Source: Tissierellia bacterium
Lineage (GTDB): Bacteria; Bacillota; Clostridia; Tissierellales; Peptoniphilaceae
DNA length: 64,000 bases
NCBI GenBank assembly: GCA_012728755.1
Contig: JAAYEL010000020.1
Location: forward strand, 723 to 64,722
Direction of reading: 5' to 3'
The notes below the pieces were generated by a model. The model was not told the DNA's origin. It was given only the letters and a program-made list of their open reading frames with translations, and did no database searches. The translations under genes and the position numbers were made by a program. Of the stretch, positions 1 through 56,608 are shown in pieces; positions within the stretch are counted from its first letter, which is position 1; every line of letters starts with the position of its first letter.

Positions 1-158
1 CCAAGTAGGGTAATAGCTACCTTTGATGATGTTAAACCTGTCAGTTGAAATACATGTACTCCAAGTGCAAAAGCAGTCATACCGCTTCCAATCGCAGCGA
101 TTAAGCTACCAAACCAGAAGAGTATAAATTTTTTATATAATTCTTTTTCTTTAGACAT
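1..158 (-). CDS. MFS-type transporter, N-terminal fragment (gene runs off the window start)
   Basis: Reverse-strand ATG at 156-158 preceded by AGGAAA. Translation MSKEKELYKKFILFWFGSLIAAIGSGMTAFALGVHVFQLTGLTSSKVAITLL looks like TM1-TM2 of a DHA3/EntS-like MFS permease. Open-ended, so absent from the ORF track. Confidence 0.5.
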   Translation of the reverse strand, partial: MSKEKELYKKFILFWFGSLIAAIGSGMTAFALGVHVFQLTGLTSSKVAITLL

Positions 159-4856: not shown

Positions 4857-4894
4857 TAAAAAAAGGGGCTGAACTTTGCAACAGCCCCTTTTTT
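4857..4894. terminator. bidirectional intrinsic terminator (copy 1 of a duplicated hairpin)
   Basis: A-run, GGGGCTG-AACTTTGCAA-CAGCCCC, T-run. Confidence 0.8.
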
Positions 4895-4896
4895 GT

Positions 4897-5330
4897 ATAT
4901 GAAAGAGGCTTACTTCGAAAGCTTCTATATTAATAGCACAGGGAAGTGACCTCGGTCGCTATTTTTCTTTTAAAAGTGTGGGGATGACATGCTAGTTTGC
5001 TATAAACTCTGAAACTAGCACGTAGAAAACTATCTGTAACAACGTGCTAGTTTAGACGAAAACCCGAAACTAGCACGTTGAAAATGGCATATAACAACAT
5101 GCTAGTTTAACCAAAACCCCGAAACTAGCACGTAAAAGTGTCTAATAACCTACATGCTAGTTAAACCAAAACCTCAAAACTAGCACGTAAAAGTGTCTAA
5201 TAACCTACATGCTAGTTTCCCAAAATCCCAAAACTAGCACGTAACCCCGTCCTAGAATGTGAGTTTTCGCTCGCGAAAACTTCCTCTTTTATCTTTGAAA
5301 GCGACCAAGGTCGATCACATTTCATAAAAC
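4897..5330. repeat. modular palindromic intergenic element (flank palindromes + 5-unit hairpin array + flank palindromes)
   Basis: Flank palindromes at 4904-4926, 4945-4960, 5263-5280 and 5300-5313. The same palindrome types bracket the arrays at 13.4-14.5 kb and 54.7-55.1 kb. Confidence 0.85.
4987..5243. repeat. tandem hairpin array, 5 units of 55 bp (stem family ACGTGCTAGTTT)
   Basis: Unit is AC(A/G)TGCTAGTTT - 13 nt C/A-rich loop - AAACTAGCACGT. Left arms start at 4987, 5042, 5097, 5152 and 5207. Confidence 0.95.
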
Positions 5331-5363
5331 AAAAAAGGGGCTGGATTTTGCAACAGCCCCTTT
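5331..5363 (-). terminator. intrinsic terminator of the permease gene (copy 2 of the duplicated hairpin)
   Basis: GGGGCTG-GATTTTGCAA-CAGCCCC with an A-run on the plus strand (U-run on the minus strand). Near-identical to 4857-4894. Confidence 0.8.
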
Positions 5364-5374
5364 CTATACTTATT

Positions 5375-12424: not shown

Positions 12425-12457
12425 TTATCCACAAGTTATCCACAAAAATGTGGATAA
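12425..12457. promoter_or_regulatory. cluster of three perfect DnaA boxes
   Basis: TTATCCACA at 12425-12433 and 12436-12444, and TGTGGATAA at 12449-12457. A degenerate box TTGCCCACA lies at 12385-12393. Confidence 0.7.
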
Positions 12458-12618: not shown

Positions 12619-13155
12619 ATGAAAATTAATTATGTGGGAAAAAACATTACTATCAGAGAAAACTTTAAAGAAACTGTAGAAAAGAAGCTTCTAAGACTTG
12701 ATAAGTTCTTCGATGAAGATGTTGAGATGAAGGCAACATTCTCAACAATAGGAAACTTTAAGACTGTCGAAGTAACGATTTGGTTGAAATCAGGTACGAT
12801 AATTAGAACGGAAGAAACTTCTGACGATATGCTAGCATCTGTTGATATGGCAGTTGAATCTCTTGATGGTCAGTTAAGAAAATACAAAACAAAACTTAAA
12901 GCAAAGAAAACAAATGAATCAATTAGATTTGATCAAGTAGCCGAAGATGAAGAAACATTGTCAGAAGACGATAAGCCAAATATAGTAAGAGTAAAAGAAA
13001 TAGGCTTAAAACCAATGTTTGTTGAAGATGCAGTAATGCAAATGGAATTATTAGGACACGATTTCTTCGTATACGAAGATGCAGAAACAAACCTTGTTTC
13101 AGTAGTATACAAAAGAAACGATGGCAACTTTGGATTGATTGAACCAAGAAGATAA
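12619..13155 (+). CDS. hpf: ribosome hibernation promoting factor, long form
   Basis: 178 aa. MKINYVGKNITI start, an N-terminal RaiA/HPF fold and a C-terminal dimerisation domain. AAGGAGGG RBS. Confidence 0.9.
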   Translation: MKINYVGKNITIRENFKETVEKKLLRLDKFFDEDVEMKATFSTIGNFKTVEVTIWLKSGTIIRTEETSDDMLASVDMAVESLDGQLRKYKTKLKAKKTNESIRFDQVAEDEETLSEDDKPNIVRVKEIGLKPMFVEDAVMQMELLGHDFFVYEDAETNLVSVVYKRNDGNFGLIEPRR

Positions 13156-13190
13156 ACTTTTCCATGAAAGGATCCCAGCTGCAGTGTCTT

Positions 13191-13337
13191 TTCGAATTCA
13201 AATTTTTCGAGAGCTGGTCCTCAGGGCGAGGCTTGTTAAATAAATAAAACGTTCGCTGTTCATATATTGAGCAGCGATTTTTTTTATTTAATCGTCGCTT
13301 CATCCCTTGCGGAGGCTTCAAAAAATTTGAATTCGAA
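13191..13337. repeat. palindromic cassette enclosing the hpf terminator
   Basis: Perfect 17-bp inverted repeat TTCGAATTCAAATTTTT (13191-13207) / AAAAATTTGAATTCGAA (13321-13337). The left 34 nt recur in inverted orientation at 35318-35351 (29 of 34 identical). Confidence 0.8.
13253..13285 (+). terminator. intrinsic terminator of hpf
   Basis: TCGCTGTTCA-TATAT-TGAGCAGCGA followed by TTTTTTTT. Confidence 0.8.
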
Positions 13338-13490
13338 AAAATCAGGGTTGGGTCTACTGAATTTTGTGGAGGAGTAGGGTTTCGTTTAGAGCTGGGGCTA
13401 GTGAAGAGTGGAAGGTTTAGCGAATTAAACCTTCCACATTTCTTTAGACAGAAAGCGACCGTTGGTCGCTATCTTTTTAAACAGTGCTTT

Positions 13491-13798
13491 TCCCTAAGAC
13501 ACAGAGCAAAGTTATGCTTTCTTAGGGACGTTCAGGGGGATAATTCCCTAAGACACAGAACATTGCAGTATATTCTTAGGGACAATTATGGCTGAAATTC
13601 CCTAAGATACAGTAAAAAGTATTGGAATCTTAGGGAAATTCAGCTTTGAAATTCCCTAAGACATGAAGAAAAACACTTGTATCTTAGGAAAAAAGCATGC
13701 GTACTGCCCCTAAGAGATGAAGAAAAATCCTCGCGTCTTAGGGAAAATGGAGCCAAAGTGCCCCTAAGAAAACAACTAAAGTTATTGAGTCTTAGGGA
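13491..13798. repeat. tandem hairpin array, 6 units of about 54 bp (stem family TCCCTAAGA)
   Basis: Unit is (T/C)CCCTAAGA - about 20 nt - TCTTAGGGA. Left arms start at 13491, 13545, 13599, 13653, 13708 and 13762. Confidence 0.95.
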
Positions 13799-13893
13799 AT
13801 TTAAGAATGATAGGTTTAGCGTAGCTAAACCTTCCTTTTTTTGTATAGAAAGTGGCTTGCTGCGCAAGCTTCTGTTTTTAAAATTTGAAGCTT

Positions 13894-14371
13894 ACGTGCT
13901 AGTTTACTCAAAACCCCAAAACTAACACGTATAAATCAGCCGTACCATACGTGCTAGTTTGTCCTAACTCCCAAAACTAGCACGTAAAAATCTGCAGCAC
14001 AATACGTTCTAGTTTGCTCGAACCCCCAAAACTAACACGTATAAATCAGCCGTACCATACGTGTTAGTTTGTCCAAAATCCCAAAACTAGCACGTAAACT
14101 GCCCCCGTAGCATACGTGTTAGTTTGCCCAAAATCCCAAAACTAGCACGTAAACTGCCCCCGTAGTATACGTGTTAGTTTGCCCAAAACCCCAAAACTAG
14201 CACGTAAACTGCCCCCGTAGTATACGTGTTAGTTTGCTCAAAATCCCAAAACTAGCACGTATAAATCAGCAGTACCATACGTGTTAGTTTGCTCGAAAAC
14301 CCCAAAACTAACACGTAAACTGCCCTCGTACCATACGTGTTAGTTTGCCCGAAACCCCACAACTAGCATGT
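13894..14371. repeat. tandem hairpin array, 9 units of 55 bp (stem family ACGTGCTAGTTT)
   Basis: Left arms start at 13894, 13949, 14004, 14059, 14114, 14169, 14224, 14279 and 14335. Same unit as 4987-5243. Confidence 0.95.
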
Positions 14372-14593
14372 TTTCTCACCTCGCCTAACACAATGACAGT
14401 TTTCGCTTTCGCAAAAACTTACCTTCTTTATGAGAAAGTAGCTTGCGTATGCAAGCTTCTATACTTATTACATATTTACTCGATATGGTCTTGGTATTAT
14501 CATGATATGTTTTGTTGAGATGGTGGGTAAATATTGTCTAAATCTCAATATAATGATAAGATAAAGGGTAGTTAAAAACGAAAAGGAGACGAC

Positions 14594-17317
14594 ATGGGAT
14601 TATTTGGAAGATTATTTAAATCGTTTAGTGAAAAAGAAATAGATAAGATAATGCCTCAAGTGGATAAGGTACTTTCGCTTGAATCAGAATATGAAAAGCT
14701 AACAGATGAACAGTTAAGAGAAAAGACAAATGAATTTAAAAATAGATTAAACAACGGTGAGACTTTGGATGATATATTGCCAGAAGCATTTGCTACAGTA
14801 AGAGAGGCTTCATTTAGAGTTTTAGGGATGAAGCATTATAAGGTGCAAATTATTGGGGGGATTATTCTTCACCAAGGTAGTATTTCTGAGATGAAAACGG
14901 GTGAAGGTAAGACTTTAGTGGCTACTTTACCTGCTTATTTGAATGCCTTAAATGGCAAGGGTGTCCATGTTGTTACAGTAAATGACTATTTGGCGCAAAG
15001 AGATATGGAGTGGATGGGTAAAGTCTATAACTTCCTTGGTCTGAGTGTTGGATGTATCATTTATGGACTTACTCAAAAAGAAAGACAAGAAAACTATAAT
15101 GCAGATATTACTTATGGTACAAATAACCAGTTTGGTTTTGACTATTTGAGAGATAACATGGAAATCTACAAGGAAGATACCGTTCAAAGAGGATTGGCAT
15201 ATGCCATTGTCGATGAGGTTGACTCGATTTTGATAGATGAGGCGAGAACTCCACTTATCATATCTGGTAAAGGTGATAAGTCTACAGATTTATATAAGAT
15301 AGCTGATAATTTTGTTAAGGGTCTTACAGGAAGAGTTCTTGATCCAAGTGAGACTGAGAAAAACAAATTAGATATGATTTTAGATGAACAAAAAGAAGAA
15401 ACTGTAGATTTTCTTGTAGATGAGAAAAGAAAAACAGCCAACCTTACTGAAGTAGGTACGGGAAGAGCTGAAAAATATTTTAATGTTGAAAACTTAGCCG
15501 ACCCTGAGAATATGGAAATCATGCATCATATTAATCAGGCTTTAAAGGCTAGAAATACTATGCATAGAGATATTGATTATGTAGTAAATGGTGATGAGAT
15601 TCAAATAGTTGATGAATTTACTGGACGTATCATGCAAGGTAGAAGGTATTCAGATGGTTTGCATCAAGCTATAGAAGCTAAAGAAAATGTAGAAGTAAAG
15701 AGCGAATCAAAGACACTTGCGACTATTACATTTCAAAATTATTTTAGGATGTATGGCAAATTAGCTGGTATGACAGGTACTGCTATGACTGAAAAGGATG
15801 AGTTTGCTGAGATCTATAATATGGATGTTATAGAAGCACCTACTAATAAGCCTGTAATCAGAAATGACGAAAATGATAGAGTTTATGTAAATGAGATGGC
15901 TAAATTTAAGGCAGTTGTTCAAGATATTATAGAAACTCATAAGACAGGTCAGCCAATACTTGTTGGTACGATATCAATTGAAAAATCAGAGATATTATCT
16001 GCTTTACTTAAAAGAGAAAGAATACCTCATGAGGTACTAAATGCTAAACAACATGAAAGAGAAGCCGAGATAGTAGCTCAAGCAGGACGTTTTGGTACTA
16101 TTACTATTGCTACTAACATGGCAGGAAGAGGTACGGATATAGTTCTTGGTGGAAATCCAGAATTTAGAGCAAAACAAGATATGAGAAAACAAGGCCTTGA
16201 AGAGCATCTTATAGAAGCGGCTGACTCTTATGCAGATACAAATGATCAAGAGATATTAGCTGCAAGAGAGATGTTTAGAAGTCTTAAAGCCCAATATAAG
16301 GAAGAGACTGATGAAAATGCTAGAAAGGTTATCGCTGCTGGCGGACTTTATATCATAGGTACAGAAAGACATGAGTCTAGACGTATAGATAATCAGCTTA
16401 GAGGTAGATCTGGTAGACAGGGAGACCCTGGAAGATCTAGATTTTATGTATCACTTGACGATGATTTAATGAGACTATTTGGTGGACCTACTTTGCAAAG
16501 GTTCGGAGCTTTCCCAGAAGATGAACCAATTGAAGCTAAGATACTTTCATCAAGTATAGAAAGAGCTCAAAGAAAGGTAGAATCAAATAACTTTGCTATG
16601 AGAAAACGTGTATTAGAATACGATAACGTTATGAATAAGCAAAGAGAAGTTATCTACAATGAAAGAAATTCAGTGCTAAATGGTGAAGATATTAAATCAA
16701 ATATTACTCATATGATTGATATGTTGATTGAAGAAGCAGTAGACAGTTTCTGTGCTCAAGGACTTAATAAGGACCAATGGGAAATAGAAGGTTTAGTGAA
16801 CTATCTTCAAGGGATTTATTTACCAGCACAAGCTTGGGAACATATAAATATAACTAATGATAGAGATGACCTAAAACAACAACTTAAGAATCTTTCATAT
16901 AAAATGTATGAAGTTAAGGAAGAAGAGTTGGGCGAGGATATGAGAGAAATCGAAAGAGTAGTATTACTTAGAGTGGTAGATACGAAATGGATGGATCATA
17001 TTGATGCCATGGATCAGCTAAAACAAGGAATCGGTGTTCGTGCATTTGGTAATGACGACCCTGTAAGAGCTTTTAGCAACGAAGGCTACGAGATGTTTAA
17101 TGAGATGAATAGAAGCATCAGGGAAGATACTATTAGAAACATCTATCATGTTTATAAGGAGTCTAAAGTAGAGCGAAATAAGGTAGCTCAAGAAGTTGAA
17201 GCACCACAAGATGGTCCAAAACAACCTATTAAGCGTAAGGAAAAAAAGGTTGGTAGAAATGACCCTTGTCCATGTGGAAGTGGTAAAAAATATAAACATT
17301 GCCATGGAAAGAACTAA
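14594..17317 (+). CDS. secA: preprotein translocase ATPase SecA
   Basis: 907 aa. MKTGEGKTL Walker [19 protein letters not shown] motif, C-terminal zinc finger [14 protein letters not shown]. Confidence 0.97.
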
Positions 17318-26078: not shown

Positions 26079-27917
26079 ATGTTAGAAAAAATTAAAAACA
26101 TATTTAGAAAAAGCGATAAGCCTAGTGAAGTTGACGTAGAGACTTTATTAAAGGAAGAAGCTATTACTTCTCCTGCAAAACAAATAGTAAAAAGATTTTT
26201 CCAAAACAAATTGGGAGTAATTGGTCTTGTTGGATTCCTAGCAATTGTATTAACAGTTTTTATAGGATCATCACTTTTAAAGTATGATGCATATTATTCA
26301 CAAGGCGTTATGAAAAACATCGGAACTGGTTCAGGATACATGAACATTCCAAATCAATTAGAAAAAGAAGGTATAAAGAAGATTGATATTGGTACTACTT
26401 TTTCGATTGGTTTATCAAAAGAAAATAACTTCTTTGTATGGGGTTATTATGAACCTCAATTAGGAGAGGTGCCAGAGGCTGCTACTGCAGTACAAGGTAA
26501 GGTTAAAGATATAGCTGCCGGTGATAAGCATGTATTGATATTAACTGAAGATAATAAAATCATTGGATGGGGAGATAATGCTCATGGACAAATAGAGCAT
26601 CCAACTGATTTCGATAAATTGATAGAAGAAGAAGGAATCTCATATATTGGAGCAGGAGATCTTTATTCAGTACTTTTAACTGATAAAGGAACATTTAAGG
26701 CTTGGGGAGCTACTTTACCTACAAACCTTCATAGAATTAGTACAGCATATAATCAAAATATCGCATATGTAGAAGAAGGTTCAGTAGACGTATTAGCTCT
26801 TACAAAAGACGGACGTGTTGTTGTATTAGGACAAAAAGGTTCTGAGCTTGACACAGCGCTACCTGAAGAAATAGGTAGAAATGGAACTGTTAAGATAGTA
26901 GAAATAGGCAGGATGAGATACTCAGGTGCAGCAGTTGACGAAAATGGTAAACTATATACTTGGGGATCAAGCTTAGATGGTGCGAATAAAGCGCCAGAAA
27001 TTGATGGAAAAGTAATTAAATTAGAATCTGGTAGAGAAAGTATAGTGGCTCTTACAGATACAGGCAAAGTATATGCTTGGGGAAATAATAACTACGGTAC
27101 TTTAGATTATCCTAAGGATGATGGATATAAAAACATATTTGCAGGATTCTTTAATAATTATGCTATAAAAGAAAGTGACACAGGTGAGACTCAATCAGTA
27201 TCTACTTGGGGACTTGACGGTTTCATAATGGGATCTGATGAGCAAGGTAGAGACTTATTTACTCGTTTAGTAAACGGTGGTAAGATGACTTTATTAATCG
27301 CTTTAGTAGCTGTAGTAATTCAAATAGTTATCGGGGTAACTGTAGGGGTTGTGGCAGGATTCTATGGTGGAGTTGTAGATAACATACTTATGAGATTTGC
27401 GGAAGTTGTTGCATCTTTCCCATTTTACCCACTAATTATCACTATATCTGCATTGTTGCCTGTGGATACGTCTCAATACACTAGATTAATTATGATAATG
27501 TTTATATTAGGTATATTGAACTGGACTGGTATCGCTAGACTTGTTCGTGGAGAGATATTATCAGAAAGACAAAAAGACTATATAACAGCAGCAAAAGCAT
27601 TAGGGTTAAAAGAAAGCAAGATAATGGCGAGCCATATGGTTCCAAACATTATTTCTATTATCATAGTACAAGCTACTTTAGGATATGCAGGAAGTTTATT
27701 ATCAGAAGCAGGATTATCATTCCTTGGTTTTGGTGTTAAAGATCCATTCCCATCTTGGGGAAATATGCTTTCTAAAGCTAATGAAGTAGCCGTTCTAGAA
27801 ACTTACTGGTGGCGTTGGGTATTCCCTGGTTTATCGGTATTCTTAACAGCTTTAACAGTTAACTTTATAGGTGATGCGTTAAGAGACGCTATGGACCCTA
27901 AAGCGCTAGAAAGGTAG
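26079..27917 (+). CDS. Opp/Dpp-type ABC permease (OppC-like) with a seven-repeat RCC1-like beta-propeller inserted in the first extracytoplasmic loop
   Basis: 612 aa. TM1 at residues about 45-67. Seven repeats at residues about 95-385 end in WG-type motifs (VWGYY, GWGDNAHGQ, AWGATL, VLGQKG, TWGSSLDG, AWGNNNYG, TWGLDG). The canonical OppC body follows, starting GSDEQGRDLFTRLV. Confidence 0.8.
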   Translation: MLEKIKNIFRKSDKPSEVDVETLLKEEAITSPAKQIVKRFFQNKLGVIGLVGFLAIVLTVFIGSSLLKYDAYYSQGVMKNIGTGSGYMNIPNQLEKEGIKKIDIGTTFSIGLSKENNFFVWGYYEPQLGEVPEAATAVQGKVKDIAAGDKHVLILTEDNKIIGWGDNAHGQIEHPTDFDKLIEEEGISYIGAGDLYSVLLTDKGTFKAWGATLPTNLHRISTAYNQNIAYVEEGSVDVLALTKDGRVVVLGQKGSELDTALPEEIGRNGTVKIVEIGRMRYSGAAVDENGKLYTWGSSLDGANKAPEIDGKVIKLESGRESIVALTDTGKVYAWGNNNYGTLDYPKDDGYKNIFAGFFNNYAIKESDTGETQSVSTWGLDGFIMGSDEQGRDLFTRLVNGGKMTLLIALVAVVIQIVIGVTVGVVAGFYGGVVDNILMRFAEVVASFPFYPLIITISALLPVDTSQYTRLIMIMFILGILNWTGIARLVRGEILSERQKDYITAAKALGLKESKIMASHMVPNIISIIIVQATLGYAGSLLSEAGLSFLGFGVKDPFPSWGNMLSKANEVAVLETYWWRWVFPGLSVFLTALTVNFIGDALRDAMDPKALER

Positions 27918-39415: not shown

Positions 39416-40759
39416 ATGGATCAAGAAATTAAAGGCAATGCTCCGCAAGCGGTTGAGGTCGAAAAGTCAATTCTCGGACTGGTAATCGTTAATAACAACT
39501 TAATAAATATTTTATTAGAGAGAATGCGTTCTGATTATTTTTATGATCCTAGAAATAAGATTATCTTTGATGCTATTAGAGACCTTAACTTCTTAAATAA
39601 GCCTGTAGACTATACGACTATAGCAAATGAACTAGAAAAGAGTAAAGGACTTGAGAGCATAGGTGGTACTTCATATATATATAATCTTTTAGAACCTTCA
39701 TACTATGCTGCAAATATTGAAGTATACATGGAGATAGTTAAGGAAAAGGCCATACTTAGAAATCTTCTAGGTCTTGGTCATGAGGTAGTATCAGACGTAT
39801 TTAATGGACAAGATGACTCTGAGTCAATAATAGGTAAATTCTCCGAAAAATTGTTTAGGATGAGTGAGTATTCGACAGAAGAAGGACTTACAAAATTAGA
39901 ACAAATAGTACCTAGCACTTATCAATATATGATTGAGATGAAGGATAATGATGGTGAACTTACAGGAATTACCACAGGATTTAAGGACTTAGATAGACAA
40001 TTAAGTGGTCTACAAAATTCAGATTTAATACTATTAGCTGCTAGACCTTCTGTTGGTAAGACAGCTTTAGGTATCAATATGGGGATCAATGCCGCTAAAG
40101 CTGGTAAGAGAGTCGCAGTATTTTCTTTAGAAATGAGTAAGAGACAGATATCTCAAAGAATTATCTCGATGCTTACTATGGTCGAGCTTCAAAATATTAT
40201 TTCGGGAAATATCACCGAAGAAGACTGGCAAGTTTTATTTACAAAAGTTGAAGAGATTAAAGATTTAGATGTTTATATTGATGACACGGCTAGTATATCT
40301 CTTACAGAATTAAGAGCGAAAGCGAAAAGAAAAAAGCAAGAAGTAGGTTTAGATTTGATCGTTATCGACTACTTACAGCTTATGACTACAGATTCAAAGC
40401 GTGTTGAAAATAGACAACAAGAAATATCAAATATATCAAGAGGATTAAAAGCATTGGCGAAGGAATTAAATATACCTGTGCTGGCTTTATCGCAATTGTC
40501 TAGAAAGTCTGAGGAAAGAACAAATAAAAGACCGATGTTATCTGACCTTAGAGAGTCTGGGGCGATCGAGCAAGATGCCGACGTTGTTATGATGCTTTAT
40601 AGGGATGACTACTATAACGAAGATACAGAGCATCCCGATGTCCTAGAAGTTATCGTTGGAAAGCATAGAAATGGTCCTACGGGAACAGTCTATCTACATT
40701 TCAACAAACCATATACTTCATTTATGGATACGGAATATGTCCCAGAAGATAATAGCTAA
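39416..40759 (+). CDS. dnaB: replicative DNA helicase
   Basis: 447 aa. Walker A ARPSVGKTA, plus DYLQLM and ESGAIEQDADVV motifs. Confidence 0.95.
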   Translation: MDQEIKGNAPQAVEVEKSILGLVIVNNNLINILLERMRSDYFYDPRNKIIFDAIRDLNFLNKPVDYTTIANELEKSKGLESIGGTSYIYNLLEPSYYAANIEVYMEIVKEKAILRNLLGLGHEVVSDVFNGQDDSESIIGKFSEKLFRMSEYSTEEGLTKLEQIVPSTYQYMIEMKDNDGELTGITTGFKDLDRQLSGLQNSDLILLAARPSVGKTALGINMGINAAKAGKRVAVFSLEMSKRQISQRIISMLTMVELQNIISGNITEEDWQVLFTKVEEIKDLDVYIDDTASISLTELRAKAKRKKQEVGLDLIVIDYLQLMTTDSKRVENRQQEISNISRGLKALAKELNIPVLALSQLSRKSEERTNKRPMLSDLRESGAIEQDADVVMMLYRDDYYNEDTEHPDVLEVIVGKHRNGPTGTVYLHFNKPYTSFMDTEYVPEDNS

Positions 40760-41348
40760 GAGGGATGAATACTACATTAAAGATCTGGAAGCACAGGATA
40801 GATTTTTATTGAATAAATGGGCGGAGTTTGAAGACCCAATTTTCTATGGATACAATTATGTTGATATGAGCGATAAGGAGTTAAGCTATTGGTATAGTAC
40901 CAAACAATATCCTTTTAGGGTATCGTATTTTAGCGTGATGGACTATGATGGAAATATGATTGGATATCTTGGGATTAAAGAAATTAACCGTTTTACAAAG
41001 GCGGCAAAGCTTGGTATAGTTCTTGACCCCAGACATGTATCAAAGGGGTATGGAACTTTGATAATGAAGGATTTTTTAGCATACTATTTTGATGAATTAA
41101 ACATGAAAAGGCTTAATTTAGAGGTTAATGGGTGGAATAAAAGAGCTATTAATCTATATAAGAAGTTTGGGTTTAAATACTATGGTGAATATATGCAAAA
41201 ATTCGAAAACCAGACATTAGACATTTACTCGGACGAATACAGCGATGTAAGTGAATTTTTCGAAGAGAAAACTTTAGGATTATATAATAAGATATATAAG
41301 ATGAGTATGACTAAACTAGAATATGAGGAGGGCAAAGATGAGATTTGA
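40737..41348 (+). CDS. GNAT-family N-acetyltransferase
   Basis: The ORF is open from 40656, but the ATG at 40737 (MSQKII...) avoids a 100-nt overlap with dnaB. Acetyl-CoA-binding-type segment GYGTLIMKDFLAYYF...AINLYKKFGF. Confidence 0.7.
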   Translation: MSQKIIAKRDEYYIKDLEAQDRFLLNKWAEFEDPIFYGYNYVDMSDKELSYWYSTKQYPFRVSYFSVMDYDGNMIGYLGIKEINRFTKAAKLGIVLDPRHVSKGYGTLIMKDFLAYYFDELNMKRLNLEVNGWNKRAINLYKKFGFKYYGEYMQKFENQTLDIYSDEYSDVSEFFEEKTLGLYNKIYKMSMTKLEYEEGKDEI

Positions 41349-54632: not shown

Positions 54633-54707
54633 GTGAAATGGACATGCTTCGTAAGTTGCTGAGTTAAAGAAGAGGATTTTGCTTGCTATCATCATTTGCC
54701 AGCCCGC

Positions 54708-55019
54708 CCCCCCAAGTTCGCGTTTTTAGTCACTTCTTGGGGGGCAATTTTTAGCCCCAAAACCCCCCAAGTTAGCTAGATTTAGTATTTCTTGGGGGGC
54801 AATTTTCAACCCCAAAACCCCCCAAGTTTTAACTTTTCAGTTCTTCTTGGGGGGTTTTTCGAAGACTTTTTTTCCACCATGTTTTATACTTTTAGAGTAA
54901 CTTGGGGGGTTTTTGAATGTTTTTTGGCCCCCCAAGATTCTAGATTTTAGTGTATCTTGGGGGGTTTTTGAGCCATTTTTAGCCCACAAAGTTTTTACAT
55001 TTTGAGGGTTCTTGGGGGG
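54708..55019. repeat. tandem hairpin array, 6 units of 55 bp (stem family CCCCCCAAG)
   Basis: Unit is CCCCCCAAG - 19 nt T-rich loop - CTTGGGGGG. Left arms start at 54708, 54763, 54818, about 54873 (degenerate), 54928 and 54983 (degenerate). Confidence 0.93.
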
Positions 55020-55037
55020 CCCAACGCTTATAAAATA

Positions 55038-55176
55038 TGGAAGCTTGCTTCGCAAGCTACTTATTAAGTGAAAGGAAGGTTTCGCTAGCGAAACCTCTCA
55101 TTCTGAGATTGGAGGAGTCGAATTTACGTAGATTGAGGCCCTGTCCTAAGAGTATAGGACCTTTTCTGTGTAAAAT
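55038..55176. repeat. flank modules of the repeat family
   Basis: AGCTTGC-TTC-GCAAGCT at 55042-55058 and GGTTTCGC-TA-GCGAAACC at 55078-55095. AGGACCTTTTCTGTGTAAAAT at 55156-55176 matches 35298-35316 at 18 of 21 positions. Confidence 0.75.
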
Positions 55177-56608
55177 TCTCCACAACTACCTTTGCCACTT
55201 CCTTTACTGAGCGGATATCATTTGCTCGATAATGGATTGAAAATACCCACATGCCTATCATATAAAGATTTTCTAATTCGCCGTAACGCTTGCTAAGCAC
55301 TGTCGCTTTCGGCCATGTTATATTGACAGAATTACCTTCTTCATCGGAGTCGATAATCTTTTTATCATATAAGTTTTTTATCAGGGTATTGCGCTTAGCA
55401 TTTCTTTCAATGTTAAAGTCAAATCCAGTCGTATTGATTAGATAATCAACGGTGATGTTTTCATCCGCGATAGCTTCGAACTGACCCGAGTCATTAACCT
55501 TTATTTCTTCCAAACCCTTTATGATTAAGGCTTTGCCAGCATCTATGGTATCAAGTAGCCAAGTTGCAGTATTTGGCGGGGTTAAGGCTCTAAAAGCGTC
55601 TATCTTATCATGATATTTATCCATATAGAAATTTTGATCACTCTTAGAAAGTAGACCATAAAGCTTAGAAAAGTATTTTGTAAAATGCTCGAAATACTCT
55701 ACTATCAATGCGATATCTTGAGGTTTTTCTTCCAAAAGTTCCCTATAAAGTTCAAGCGAATTATTCTTTATTCGCTCATAGCATTTATGAAAAGCCACTC
55801 CTTCTGATTTGAAGTCCTCAGCTACAAGATGCAAGATATTATCTAAAGGAATAATCCCTCCATTTTCATCAAGCTGGGTCTGAACCCATTCATCATTTAT
55901 AGAGAATCTAAATTCGGATTTATCCAGTTCAATATGCGGGATATTAAATATTGAATCTCTAGTTAGTATGTAAAATGGATTTTCTAACTCATAGCTTTGA
56001 AGTATATATCTAAAAACATCAAGGCTAGTAGCGCCAGCGCCAATCATAGCGATTTTATCATCCTTTGTTAGGTGAGCTAGCATCTTTTCCAAAGGATAAG
56101 GATTATGGATATAGTTTTTCTTATCTCGTAAATCATAATGGTCCGAATAATCAGGATGACCTAAAGTTAGAAAAACTGCATCAAAGATGGGCTCTTCCCA
56201 TTGGTCAGTTTTTAGTCTGTATGTTTTAGGAAAGCTTTCGACAACCTCCATATCTGTTACTTCCTTTTTGACGATGTTGATGTTTGGATGATTGTAGTAG
56301 GGTCTATAGAAATCTTCTAGATATTGACCGTAGTAGTTACGAGGTGTCATACCTTCAAAGTTTTGATAAGTAGTTTTGTTCGCTTCAAGCCATTTTACAA
56401 AACCCATATCATCATCGTCCATGCTCATAAAGTGCTCGGGTACATTTAGGAGTTTATATTCGGATTCGAATTCGTAGGGAAATCCCGAGCCGAGTTTTTC
56501 GCGAGGTTCGAAGATATAGATTTGATTTTGCTCTATAAGATTATTATCGAATAAGTTTTTTAGTATATTTGAGCCGCTAAGACCAGCACCTATTATGGCA
56601 ATATTCAT
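55124..56608 (-). CDS. FAD/NAD(P)-binding protein of unknown function (NAD_binding_9-like)
   Basis: 494 aa. N-terminal IAIIGAGLSGS and a second dinucleotide fold IAMIGAGATSLD. The last 15 or so codons lie in a repeat module. GGAGG RBS. Confidence 0.6.
   Translation of the reverse strand: MNIAIIGAGLSGSNILKNLFDNNLIEQNQIYIFEPREKLGSGFPYEFESEYKLLNVPEHFMSMDDDDMGFVKWLEANKTTYQNFEGMTPRNYYGQYLEDFYRPYYNHPNINIVKKEVTDMEVVESFPKTYRLKTDQWEEPIFDAVFLTLGHPDYSDHYDLRDKKNYIHNPYPLEKMLAHLTKDDKIAMIGAGATSLDVFRYILQSYELENPFYILTRDSIFNIPHIELDKSEFRFSINDEWVQTQLDENGGIIPLDNILHLVAEDFKSEGVAFHKCYERIKNNSLELYRELLEEKPQDIALIVEYFEHFTKYFSKLYGLLSKSDQNFYMDKYHDKIDAFRALTPPNTATWLLDTIDAGKALIIKGLEEIKVNDSGQFEAIADENITVDYLINTTGFDFNIERNAKRNTLIKNLYDKKIIDSDEEGNSVNITWPKATVLSKRYGELENLYMIGMWVFSIHYRANDIRSVKEVAKVVVENFTQKRSYTLRTGPQST

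Follow-up and report, generated by a model that had tools for sequence, protein, structure and literature searches.

Proteobacteria, streptococci and staphylococci are well known for mosaic interspersed repeats, among them REP/BIME, BOX and STAR. BOX elements consist of terminal modules placed around a tandem internal module that folds on itself; their copy number varies between strains, they are enriched downstream of genes, and they come in several permutations (PMC3049150). Hidden Markov models of BOX recovered nothing from the tested genomes of Haemophilus influenzae, of Neisseria meningitidis or of Staphylococcus aureus, and BOX-type elements are found in S. suis (PMC3049150). GTAG repeats are on record for Proteobacteria, Cyanobacteria, Chloroflexi and the PVC group, whereas none have been reported from Firmicutes (PMC3733652). 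For Tissierellia or Peptoniphilaceae, no description of interspersed mosaic repeats was found in the literature, nor was anything relevant found on repeat families of Helcococcus or Clostridia. Here we describe a family of tandem palindromic repeats in a 64,000-nucleotide stretch from a Tissierellia bacterium (contig JAAYEL010000020.1); this whole stretch is called the window below. The repeats form four arrays at three extragenic loci, 26 units in total with 5-9 units per array, and one of these loci is the spacer between hpf and secA.

The repeat family is real and previously undescribed. There is a somewhat better than even chance that it is a lineage-specific, non-coding mosaic repeat family of the BOX/BIME type, working at the DNA level, with arrays that expand and contract by slippage or unequal recombination. 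This reading is drawn from the architecture, a location downstream of genes and next to terminators, sequences specific to the species, absence at orthologous sites and the polymorphism of whole units, as known from BOX (PMC3049150) and BIME (PMC2817692). Each copy would consist of oriented, terminator-like end modules (P1-P5) around an internal tandem array; a unit would comprise an arm of 9-12 nt and its inverted counterpart, separated by a spacer and followed by a linker, both of fixed length. Arrays would grow and shrink through slipped-strand mispairing or unequal recombination, which is favoured because every arm is complementary to both neighbouring arms. Either the two-neighbour pairing network or a trans-acting, hairpin-specific enzyme may freeze arms and spacing while the spacer sequences drift, and copying and pasting, or recombination, at the palindromic end modules may give rise to new loci. 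For the host, the element would mainly add transcription termination and insulation; the tandem stem-loops would form in read-through RNA only, and the element would be tolerated, not required.

Arrays and their end modules

The gene hpf (Pfam S30AE) ends at 13155, and a 907-aa open reading frame (ORF) from 14594 recovers SecA-bearing loci across Bacillota; the spacer between them (13156-14593) is 1438 bp long and holds two arrays. Array A (13491..13798, plus strand) has six 54-bp units of the form TCCCTAAGA-N20-TCTTAGGGA-N16. Its left arms (TCCCTAAGA) start at 13491, 13545, 13599, 13653, 13707 and 13761, exactly 54 apart; from the start of a left arm to that of its right arm (TCTTAGGGA) it is 29 nt, which gives a geometry (arm-spacer-arm-linker) of 9-20-9-16. 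Array B (13894..14371, plus strand) has nine 55-bp units, ACGTGYTAGTTT-N13-AAACTARCACGT-N18, with geometry 12-13-12-18 and a period of 55 (the final interval is 56). The same arms return in the same orientation at a second locus (4987..5243, plus strand), in five 55-bp units of geometry 12-13-12-18. Array C (54708..55019, plus strand) has six 55-bp units, CCCCCCAAG-N19-CTTGGGGGG-N18, with geometry 9-19-9-18 and a period of 55; one left arm, near 54873, is degenerate. All four arrays thus lie where a preliminary description of this DNA had placed them, with the geometry it had given. Among all spacers (loops and linkers), only two deviate in length, by 1 nt each, and the family B hairpin pattern has 23 matches in the window where 0.02 would be expected by chance. 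The 54-bp repeat of array A corresponds to 18 codons, and stop codons in all frames mark it as non-coding.

Within each array all units are in direct orientation, and it is the single arms that alternate. From this order of left, right, left, right it follows that any arm can pair with either neighbour, leaving loops of 13-20 or of 14-18 nt, so that what is called "hairpin" and what is called "linker" is a matter of convention. For the same reason, the minimum-free-energy fold of a whole array is a set of nested long-range pairings, not a simple row of hairpins. The array hairpins as assigned here span 37-39 bp; the imperfect palindromes of REP/BIME units measure 20-40 bp.

The arrays are flanked by short GC-rich palindromes, P1-P5, which within the window are found beside arrays only. 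They have the form of intrinsic terminators (A-tract, GC stem-loop, T-tract), with stems of 6-13 bp, and span 17-30 bp. The flank palindromes of the preliminary description are all present, two of them being imperfect, namely the one at 14399-14418, which pairs at 7/8 positions, and the one at 4945-4960 and 5300-5313, with one mismatch at each site. Array A is bracketed by the terminator-like palindrome P4 on its left (13398..13447, plus strand; GTGGAAGGTTTA-gcgaat-TAAACCTTCCAC) and by P4', a direct copy, on its right (13803..13841, strand undefined; AGGTTTAGC-gta-GCTAAACCT). P1 (13443..13481, strand undefined; AGCGACC-gtt-GGTCGCT) has A-rich and T-rich flanks and is terminator-like on both strands. 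The nine-unit array B stands between two direct copies of P2, an oriented terminator-like palindrome, at 13843..13880 (plus strand; GAAAGTGGCTTGC-tgc-GCAAGCTTCT) and at 14428..14470 (plus strand; GAAAGTAGCTTGC-gtat-GCAAGCTTCTATACTTATT), and P3, an oriented module of ~40 bp around GTTTTCGC-tttc-GCAAAAAC, lies at 14385..14425 (plus strand).

At the second B locus, a degenerate P2 (GGCTTAC-ttcga-AAGCTTCTATA) followed by P1 (AGTGACC-tc-GGTCGCT) lies left of the five units (4896..4970, plus strand), and P3 (GAGTTTTCGC-tc-GCGAAAACTT) followed by P1 (AGCGACC-aa-GGTCGAT) lies right of them (5250..5320, plus strand). Outside this P1/P1 bracket stands a duplicated 35-bp terminator, P5. Its left copy (4859..4894, strand undefined; AAAAAAGGGGCTG-N10-CAGCCCCTTTTTT) is the terminator of a DsrE-like gene, and its right copy (5330..5365, strand undefined), a 35-bp direct duplicate of 4859-4894 with two mismatches, is that of the convergent FtsX-permease gene. 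Array C has a weak, degenerate P2-like remnant on its left (54643..54660, strand undefined; ACATGCTTCGTAAGTT) and an intact P2 on its right. Here the P3-P2 block is inverted (55026..55125, minus strand): over ~95 nt, 14372-14470 is homologous to 55020-55125 in reverse orientation, and the block is also the terminator of the convergent gene 55124-56608.

P2 and P3 are oriented in the sense that sequence conservation extends past the palindrome, and B units and P modules keep an identical relative orientation at both B loci. P2 heads read GTAG in two of four copies and GTGG in one of four; P4 at 13408 starts with GTGG, and P1 and P4' have ATAG. The flanking P modules are direct copies of palindromes and hence also inverted copies of one another; a long duplex of the A-C type between terminal modules was not demonstrated. 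One contig of the European Nucleotide Archive (L074, 3337-3782, equivalent to the window from 4842 onwards) parts from the window at a point exactly within the P5 terminator hairpin's loop and goes on as unrelated sequence of higher GC with no clear ORF. Possible causes are a rearrangement, insertion at the hairpin and chimerism of the contig.

The genes that flank the arrays (assigned with Pfam) are hpf, secA, the DsrE-like gene, the FtsX permease, prfA and a gene for an FAD protein. At every locus at least one flanking gene has its 3' end just upstream of the composite, and terminator-like hairpins are close by. These findings bear out the proposal of a modular, dispersed intergenic element resembling BOX or BIME, with terminal palindromic modules and a variable number of tandem units.

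Strain variation and distribution

Repeats often cause mis-assemblies, and short-read contigs break here too, many of them ending at or just before the arrays. An assembly artefact is nevertheless refuted as far as the existence of the arrays is concerned, and we give it practically no weight: independent metagenome assemblies from other samples, on contigs that encode exactly identical neighbouring proteins (numbered with L below), carry the window's arrays at 98-99.9% identity, and some contigs cross the whole array at 4987. L001 and L006 contain array A and the start of B, L001 being collinear through A into the first B unit. The array at 4987 is present in L073, L076, L077 and L079-L081, and L073 (= L125) spans the whole locus. 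L083 carries the first three units of array C, identical to those of the window. The exact unit counts in the window depend on the window's own assembly.

The same contigs show that unit number differs between strains, as the preliminary description had suggested. L006 has five A units against six in the window, one 54-bp unit being missing, and its order of B units differs from the window's. The nine-unit array B has a super-period of 110 bp according to Tandem Repeats Finder, and the different unit order in L006 means that two-unit blocks of this array are also duplicated or deleted. Two linker types in alternation, ATAAATCAGCCGTACCAT and AAACTGCCCCCGTAGTAT, underlie the super-period. At the 4987 locus, L073 and L077 have four B units against five in the window, and L080 also lacks a 55-bp B unit, which is not the one absent from L073 and L077.

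The host is uncultured, and its SecA places it in the Peptoniphilaceae (Tissierellia) near Helcococcus, with the best GTDB species representative at 83% identity. In the closest relatives the spacer between hpf and secA measures 200-350 bp and is free of arrays. Custom scans for arrays of this geometry over 62 GTDB and 19 metagenome secA loci were positive in Helcococcus kunzii ATCC 51366 alone. There the arrays stand at another site, between a LytR-CpsA-Psr gene and htrA, with an assembly gap inside the array, and they belong to two further arm families: D (TTTCCTGATTA / TAATCAGGAAA; geometry 11-17-11-12..14, period 51-53) and E (TACATGTGTAA / TTACACATGTA; geometry 11-15-11-15, period 52-53). 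The geometry that the preliminary description had found to be shared by three stems therefore extends to five families: with arms of 9-12 nt and loops of 13-20 nt, the hairpin still spans 37-39 nt and the period is 51-56 bp throughout. Each D unit (L015 2964-3413, minus strand) has a weak promoter-like match, CTGACY-16-AATAAT, which is probably a by-product of AT-rich composition.

Other searches gave little. A covariance model of the B unit had no matches in relatives and none on the E units of H. kunzii, so that homology of B and E is unsupported. By eye, a homology of A and C arms (CCCTAAG versus CCCCAAG, with two compensated positions) was suggestive, but the MAFFT alignment was not structure-consistent, and the homology is kept as a lead. 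The exact family B hairpin pattern had 0 matches in 185,579 GTDB species genomes, JGI metagenomes and IMG/VR, and the family D pattern had 0 matches in IMG/VR. The family A pattern was found on 22 IMG/VR contigs, as a single palindrome each and with no array, and these were taken as chance matches. The spacer between hpf and secA, searched with blastn against plasmids and phages, matched nothing. In Rfam 15 the whole window had no match at the gathering threshold, and 13150-14650 gave chance-level hairpins only at E up to 5. That the preliminary description did not recognise the sequences is in keeping with this, as the libraries searched hold no match to a described family. About 7 kb past the window ends, reached through contigs with exactly identical proteins and inspected at the contig ends alone, no array was seen.

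Two contigs of a related strain and a related species bear on the region between hpf and secA. L010 is 97.8% identical across hpf and has entirely different sequence past window position ~13340; at 930-1181 it carries three small GC-rich palindromes (GGGGTTCGAC.., the P1-like GGCGACC..GGGTCGC, and GTGGCC..GGCCAC), and these are followed by a minus-strand gene in place of the arrays and secA. In L011, the closest metagenome-assembled genome, whose SecA is 83% identical, the contig breaks off 243 bp upstream of secA, and its end (1-40) holds the right half of a P5-like hairpin (ATTTTGCAACAGCCCC) with the same loop sequence. Judging by this half-hairpin, the L011 species also seems to have a repeat element in this spacer.

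The constancy of the hairpin span across five unrelated arm sequences, with shorter loops where arms are longer and with spacer lengths frozen and spacer sequences free, allows for a different reading, in which a structure-recognising enzyme or protein recognises hairpins of 37-39 nt and generates the tandem arrays. It could do so, for example, by rolling-circle amplification of a basic module, as has been proposed for RAYT and BIME, and an HUH/Y1-type nuclease would be one candidate. We regard this as a minor possibility. If true, Firmicutes would have their first REP/RAYT-like hairpin system, and recognition in it would go by geometry, not by sequence. Such ruler-like geometry across five arm families and two species is unusual and is open to testing in the cultivable H. 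kunzii ATCC 51366.

Conservation, pairing and transcription signals

Conservation was calculated as mean identity between units. In array A it is 94% for left arms, 45% for loops, 96% for right arms and 36% for linkers; in array C the corresponding values are 91%, 46%, 100% and 41%. For family B they are 93%, 78%, 92% and 59% in the nine-unit array and 92%, 54%, 100% and 49% in the five-unit array, and between the two loci 85%, 59%, 96% and 32%. Taken with the near-constant spacer lengths, these identities show that arm sequence and spacing are held and that spacer sequence is nearly free. The preliminary description had seen selection on structure rather than sequence; within a family this does not hold, as the arms are themselves conserved in sequence at 91-100% and the spacers drift towards random.

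It had also proposed a compensatory series at stem position 6 of the nine-unit array, with wobble pairs as intermediates. This is not upheld. At the variable stem position of family B all four combinations of C/T with G/A are present (C-G, T-A, T·G and C·A), including C·A mismatches in the units at 13894 and 14004 which had been omitted. Pairing covariation within family B is not above shuffled controls, 445 of 500 shuffles reaching the observed count of double changes. The variation is the ordinary assortment of two polymorphic columns, inflated by a recent tandem duplication of T·G units. Signs that pairing matters come solely from the comparison between families, in which the arms differ and are always complementary. 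This fits an RNA or single-stranded DNA hairpin and a symmetric protein-binding site equally well.

One way to account for such a pattern is a binding platform on duplex DNA, in which the 9-12 nt arms would serve as half-sites and the array would be coated or wrapped by a protein of the nucleoid-associated, partition or regulatory type. The arms recur each 51-56 bp, about five helical turns, and they stayed conserved while the spacers drifted to 36-59% identity at exact length. In family B the arms were kept across two loci (85-96%) and the linkers only at 32%, and the lack of pairing covariation in this family suggests that sequence, not pairing, is conserved. Loops of 13-20 nt are moreover large for cruciform extrusion. 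However, at least five unrelated arm sequences in two small genomes would need an equal number of specificities, 13-20 bp between half-sites is unusual for dimeric DNA-binding proteins, and no candidate gene for a binding protein is found nearby. There is also a strand polarity in the B units, which score 55-75 bits with the covariance model on the plus strand and 19-35 on the minus strand, and family B loops contain 46% C against a background of 12-15%; a symmetric duplex site needs neither. A binding platform is an unlikely explanation.

The polarity of the units and the C/A-rich, G-poor loops of family B would agree with a functional structured RNA, the tandem stem-loops acting as 3'-end stabilisers or exonuclease barriers, as processing sites or as a multivalent sponge. 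Folding is very strong on the plus strand (z = -18.4 for array B and -9.0 for array A against shuffled sequence), the hairpin span is constant though the arms differ between families, and sense-strand T·G combinations are seen in array B as well as in family D of H. kunzii. Against this, the minus strand folds about equally well (z = -7.6 for B and -12.4 for A), the T·G combinations of family B have C·A mismatches beside them and covariation no better than in shuffles, the mismatches in family A read C·A on the sense strand, the loops of families A and C show no sequence conservation, and Rfam offers nothing. Some more specific ideas were dropped as they are not general across families: C-rich loops as anti-Shine-Dalgarno sequences, a CsrA-type GGA sponge, telomere-like or G-quadruplex motifs (TTAGGG, TTGGGG, C4A4), and every unit as a terminator.

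The transcription signals speak against a dedicated RNA function as well. Terminator-like hairpins are found near every array; in the spacer between hpf and secA there are 10 such sites against 1.3 expected, three of them between hpf and array A and further ones past each array, and both there and at the 4987 locus they stand on both sides of the arrays. No promoter-like site lies inside any array, and the sole one for secA (14475-14503) is downstream of the arrays. With such signals, stem-loops in read-through RNA are still possible, while a role in a long 5' region of secA, one of the functions proposed in the preliminary description, becomes doubtful. Overall a structured RNA is improbable. 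Directly after the hpf stop codon there is a long imperfect hairpin of ~190 nt (13156-13345; z = -7.6), which carries the hpf terminator at its apex. Strains L006 and L010 have conserved it, and 7 of 10 metagenome contigs end inside it, at 13228 or 13229.

Several observations weigh against the BOX/BIME-type reading that we favour. It is built on three loci in one 64-kb window, and in the window there are no solitary units outside arrays, unlike what is known of REPs. Neither a mobilising enzyme nor a target-site duplication, nor an empty site within the species, was found, so that mobility is deduced from dispersal alone. The H. kunzii arrays have no P-type flank modules, which means that arrays and P modules may be separable elements. 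Finally, neutral junk DNA would not combine arms conserved this strongly with near-random spacers whose length is fixed, and the combination could point to a specific function. It is this clean pattern, with frozen arms and spacing, free spacers and a geometry shared by two species, which makes the family suited to asking what maintains such repeats, the candidates being the pairing network, a hairpin-specific enzyme and a binding protein. On the practical side, the arrays break short-read assemblies of this lineage, and unit-number polymorphism is a ready marker for strain typing.

The ORFs of the window that were scanned with Pfam are housekeeping genes (hpf, prfA, prfB, dnaB, tRNA synthetases, Opp transporter) or have no Pfam match, and none of them encodes a transposase, recombinase, Cas protein, toxin or RAYT; a GNAT-like ORF (40656-41348) was read in translation only. 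Two features outside the arrays are worth mentioning. A 33-bp stretch (12425-12457) some 165 bp upstream of hpf holds three perfect DnaA boxes (TTATCCACA), two of them direct and one inverted; only four perfect boxes exist in the 64 kb, and the cluster lies away from any dnaA gene in the window. At 26079-27917, an oligopeptide permease of the OppC type has an unusual domain insertion, in which RCC1 repeats (PF13540, E = 1.7e-31) follow the N-terminal transmembrane segment and precede the permease domain.

Comparison with described repeat systems

Short conserved repeats that alternate with sequence-variable spacers of fixed length are reminiscent of CRISPR, and one could think of a degenerate or novel CRISPR-like array, or of an orphan repeat array of the type III antitoxin kind (ToxI-like), since tandem repeats adjoin terminators here as they do in ToxI (PMC3401426). 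In the present arrays, however, the arms alternate in orientation, the spacers are just 13-20 nt long and related by descent, and the same arms are found at two loci. There is no leader, and neither a cas gene nor a toxin ORF was found at the flanking genes; the genes downstream are secA, the FtsX permease and the FAD-binding protein, not toxN, cptN or tenpN. This explanation is largely refuted and can be considered very improbable.

A parallel for the end modules is SPRITE of pneumococci, which are likewise dispersed terminator-like repeats (PMC3049150); some P modules stand where the terminator of a gene would be expected. SPRITE has an 18-bp stem and a long U tract, whereas P modules have the shorter stems described above and occur beside arrays only.

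With REP and BIME, in particular BIME-2 and atypical BIMEs, the elements share regularly spaced, alternating palindromic motifs in tandem modules together with other short motifs, and a length that varies between strains while palindromy is kept (PMC2817692, PMC3733652). The GTAG or GTGG head on three of four P2 modules recalls the tag that is typical of REPs (PMC3733652). In a BIME each REP is a hairpin and neighbouring hairpins are inverted; here single arms alternate and whole units are direct. The array units carry no conserved GTAG or CGTC tag, GTAG being present in some family B linkers only. REPs flank the gene of a cognate RAYT, a Y1 transposase of the IS200/IS605 type, and the preliminary description had named a RAYT-like transposase as one candidate; none is encoded by the ORFs of the window scanned with Pfam. 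REP/BIME copies are extragenic and number more than about 100 in a genome; the 64 kb have three extragenic loci with 26 units.

The composite architecture is the one known from BOX in S. pneumoniae and BOX-type elements in S. suis, boxA-(boxB)n-boxC. In both cases strains differ in how many internal modules they have, and a location downstream of genes and several module permutations are shared as well. Terminator-like palindromes of 17-40 bp form the end modules here, whereas boxA and boxC measure 50-59 nt and are paired to one another. The internal families, at least three in number, are interchangeable and have a common geometry here, with units of 54-55 bp against 45 bp in BOX, and the host belongs to the Tissierellia and not to Streptococcus. 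A sequence relationship to BOX would not be expected and none was seen in the libraries searched. The likeness claimed is one of the mode of working and not of membership: the elements work like BOX and BIME and are to be filed in neither family.

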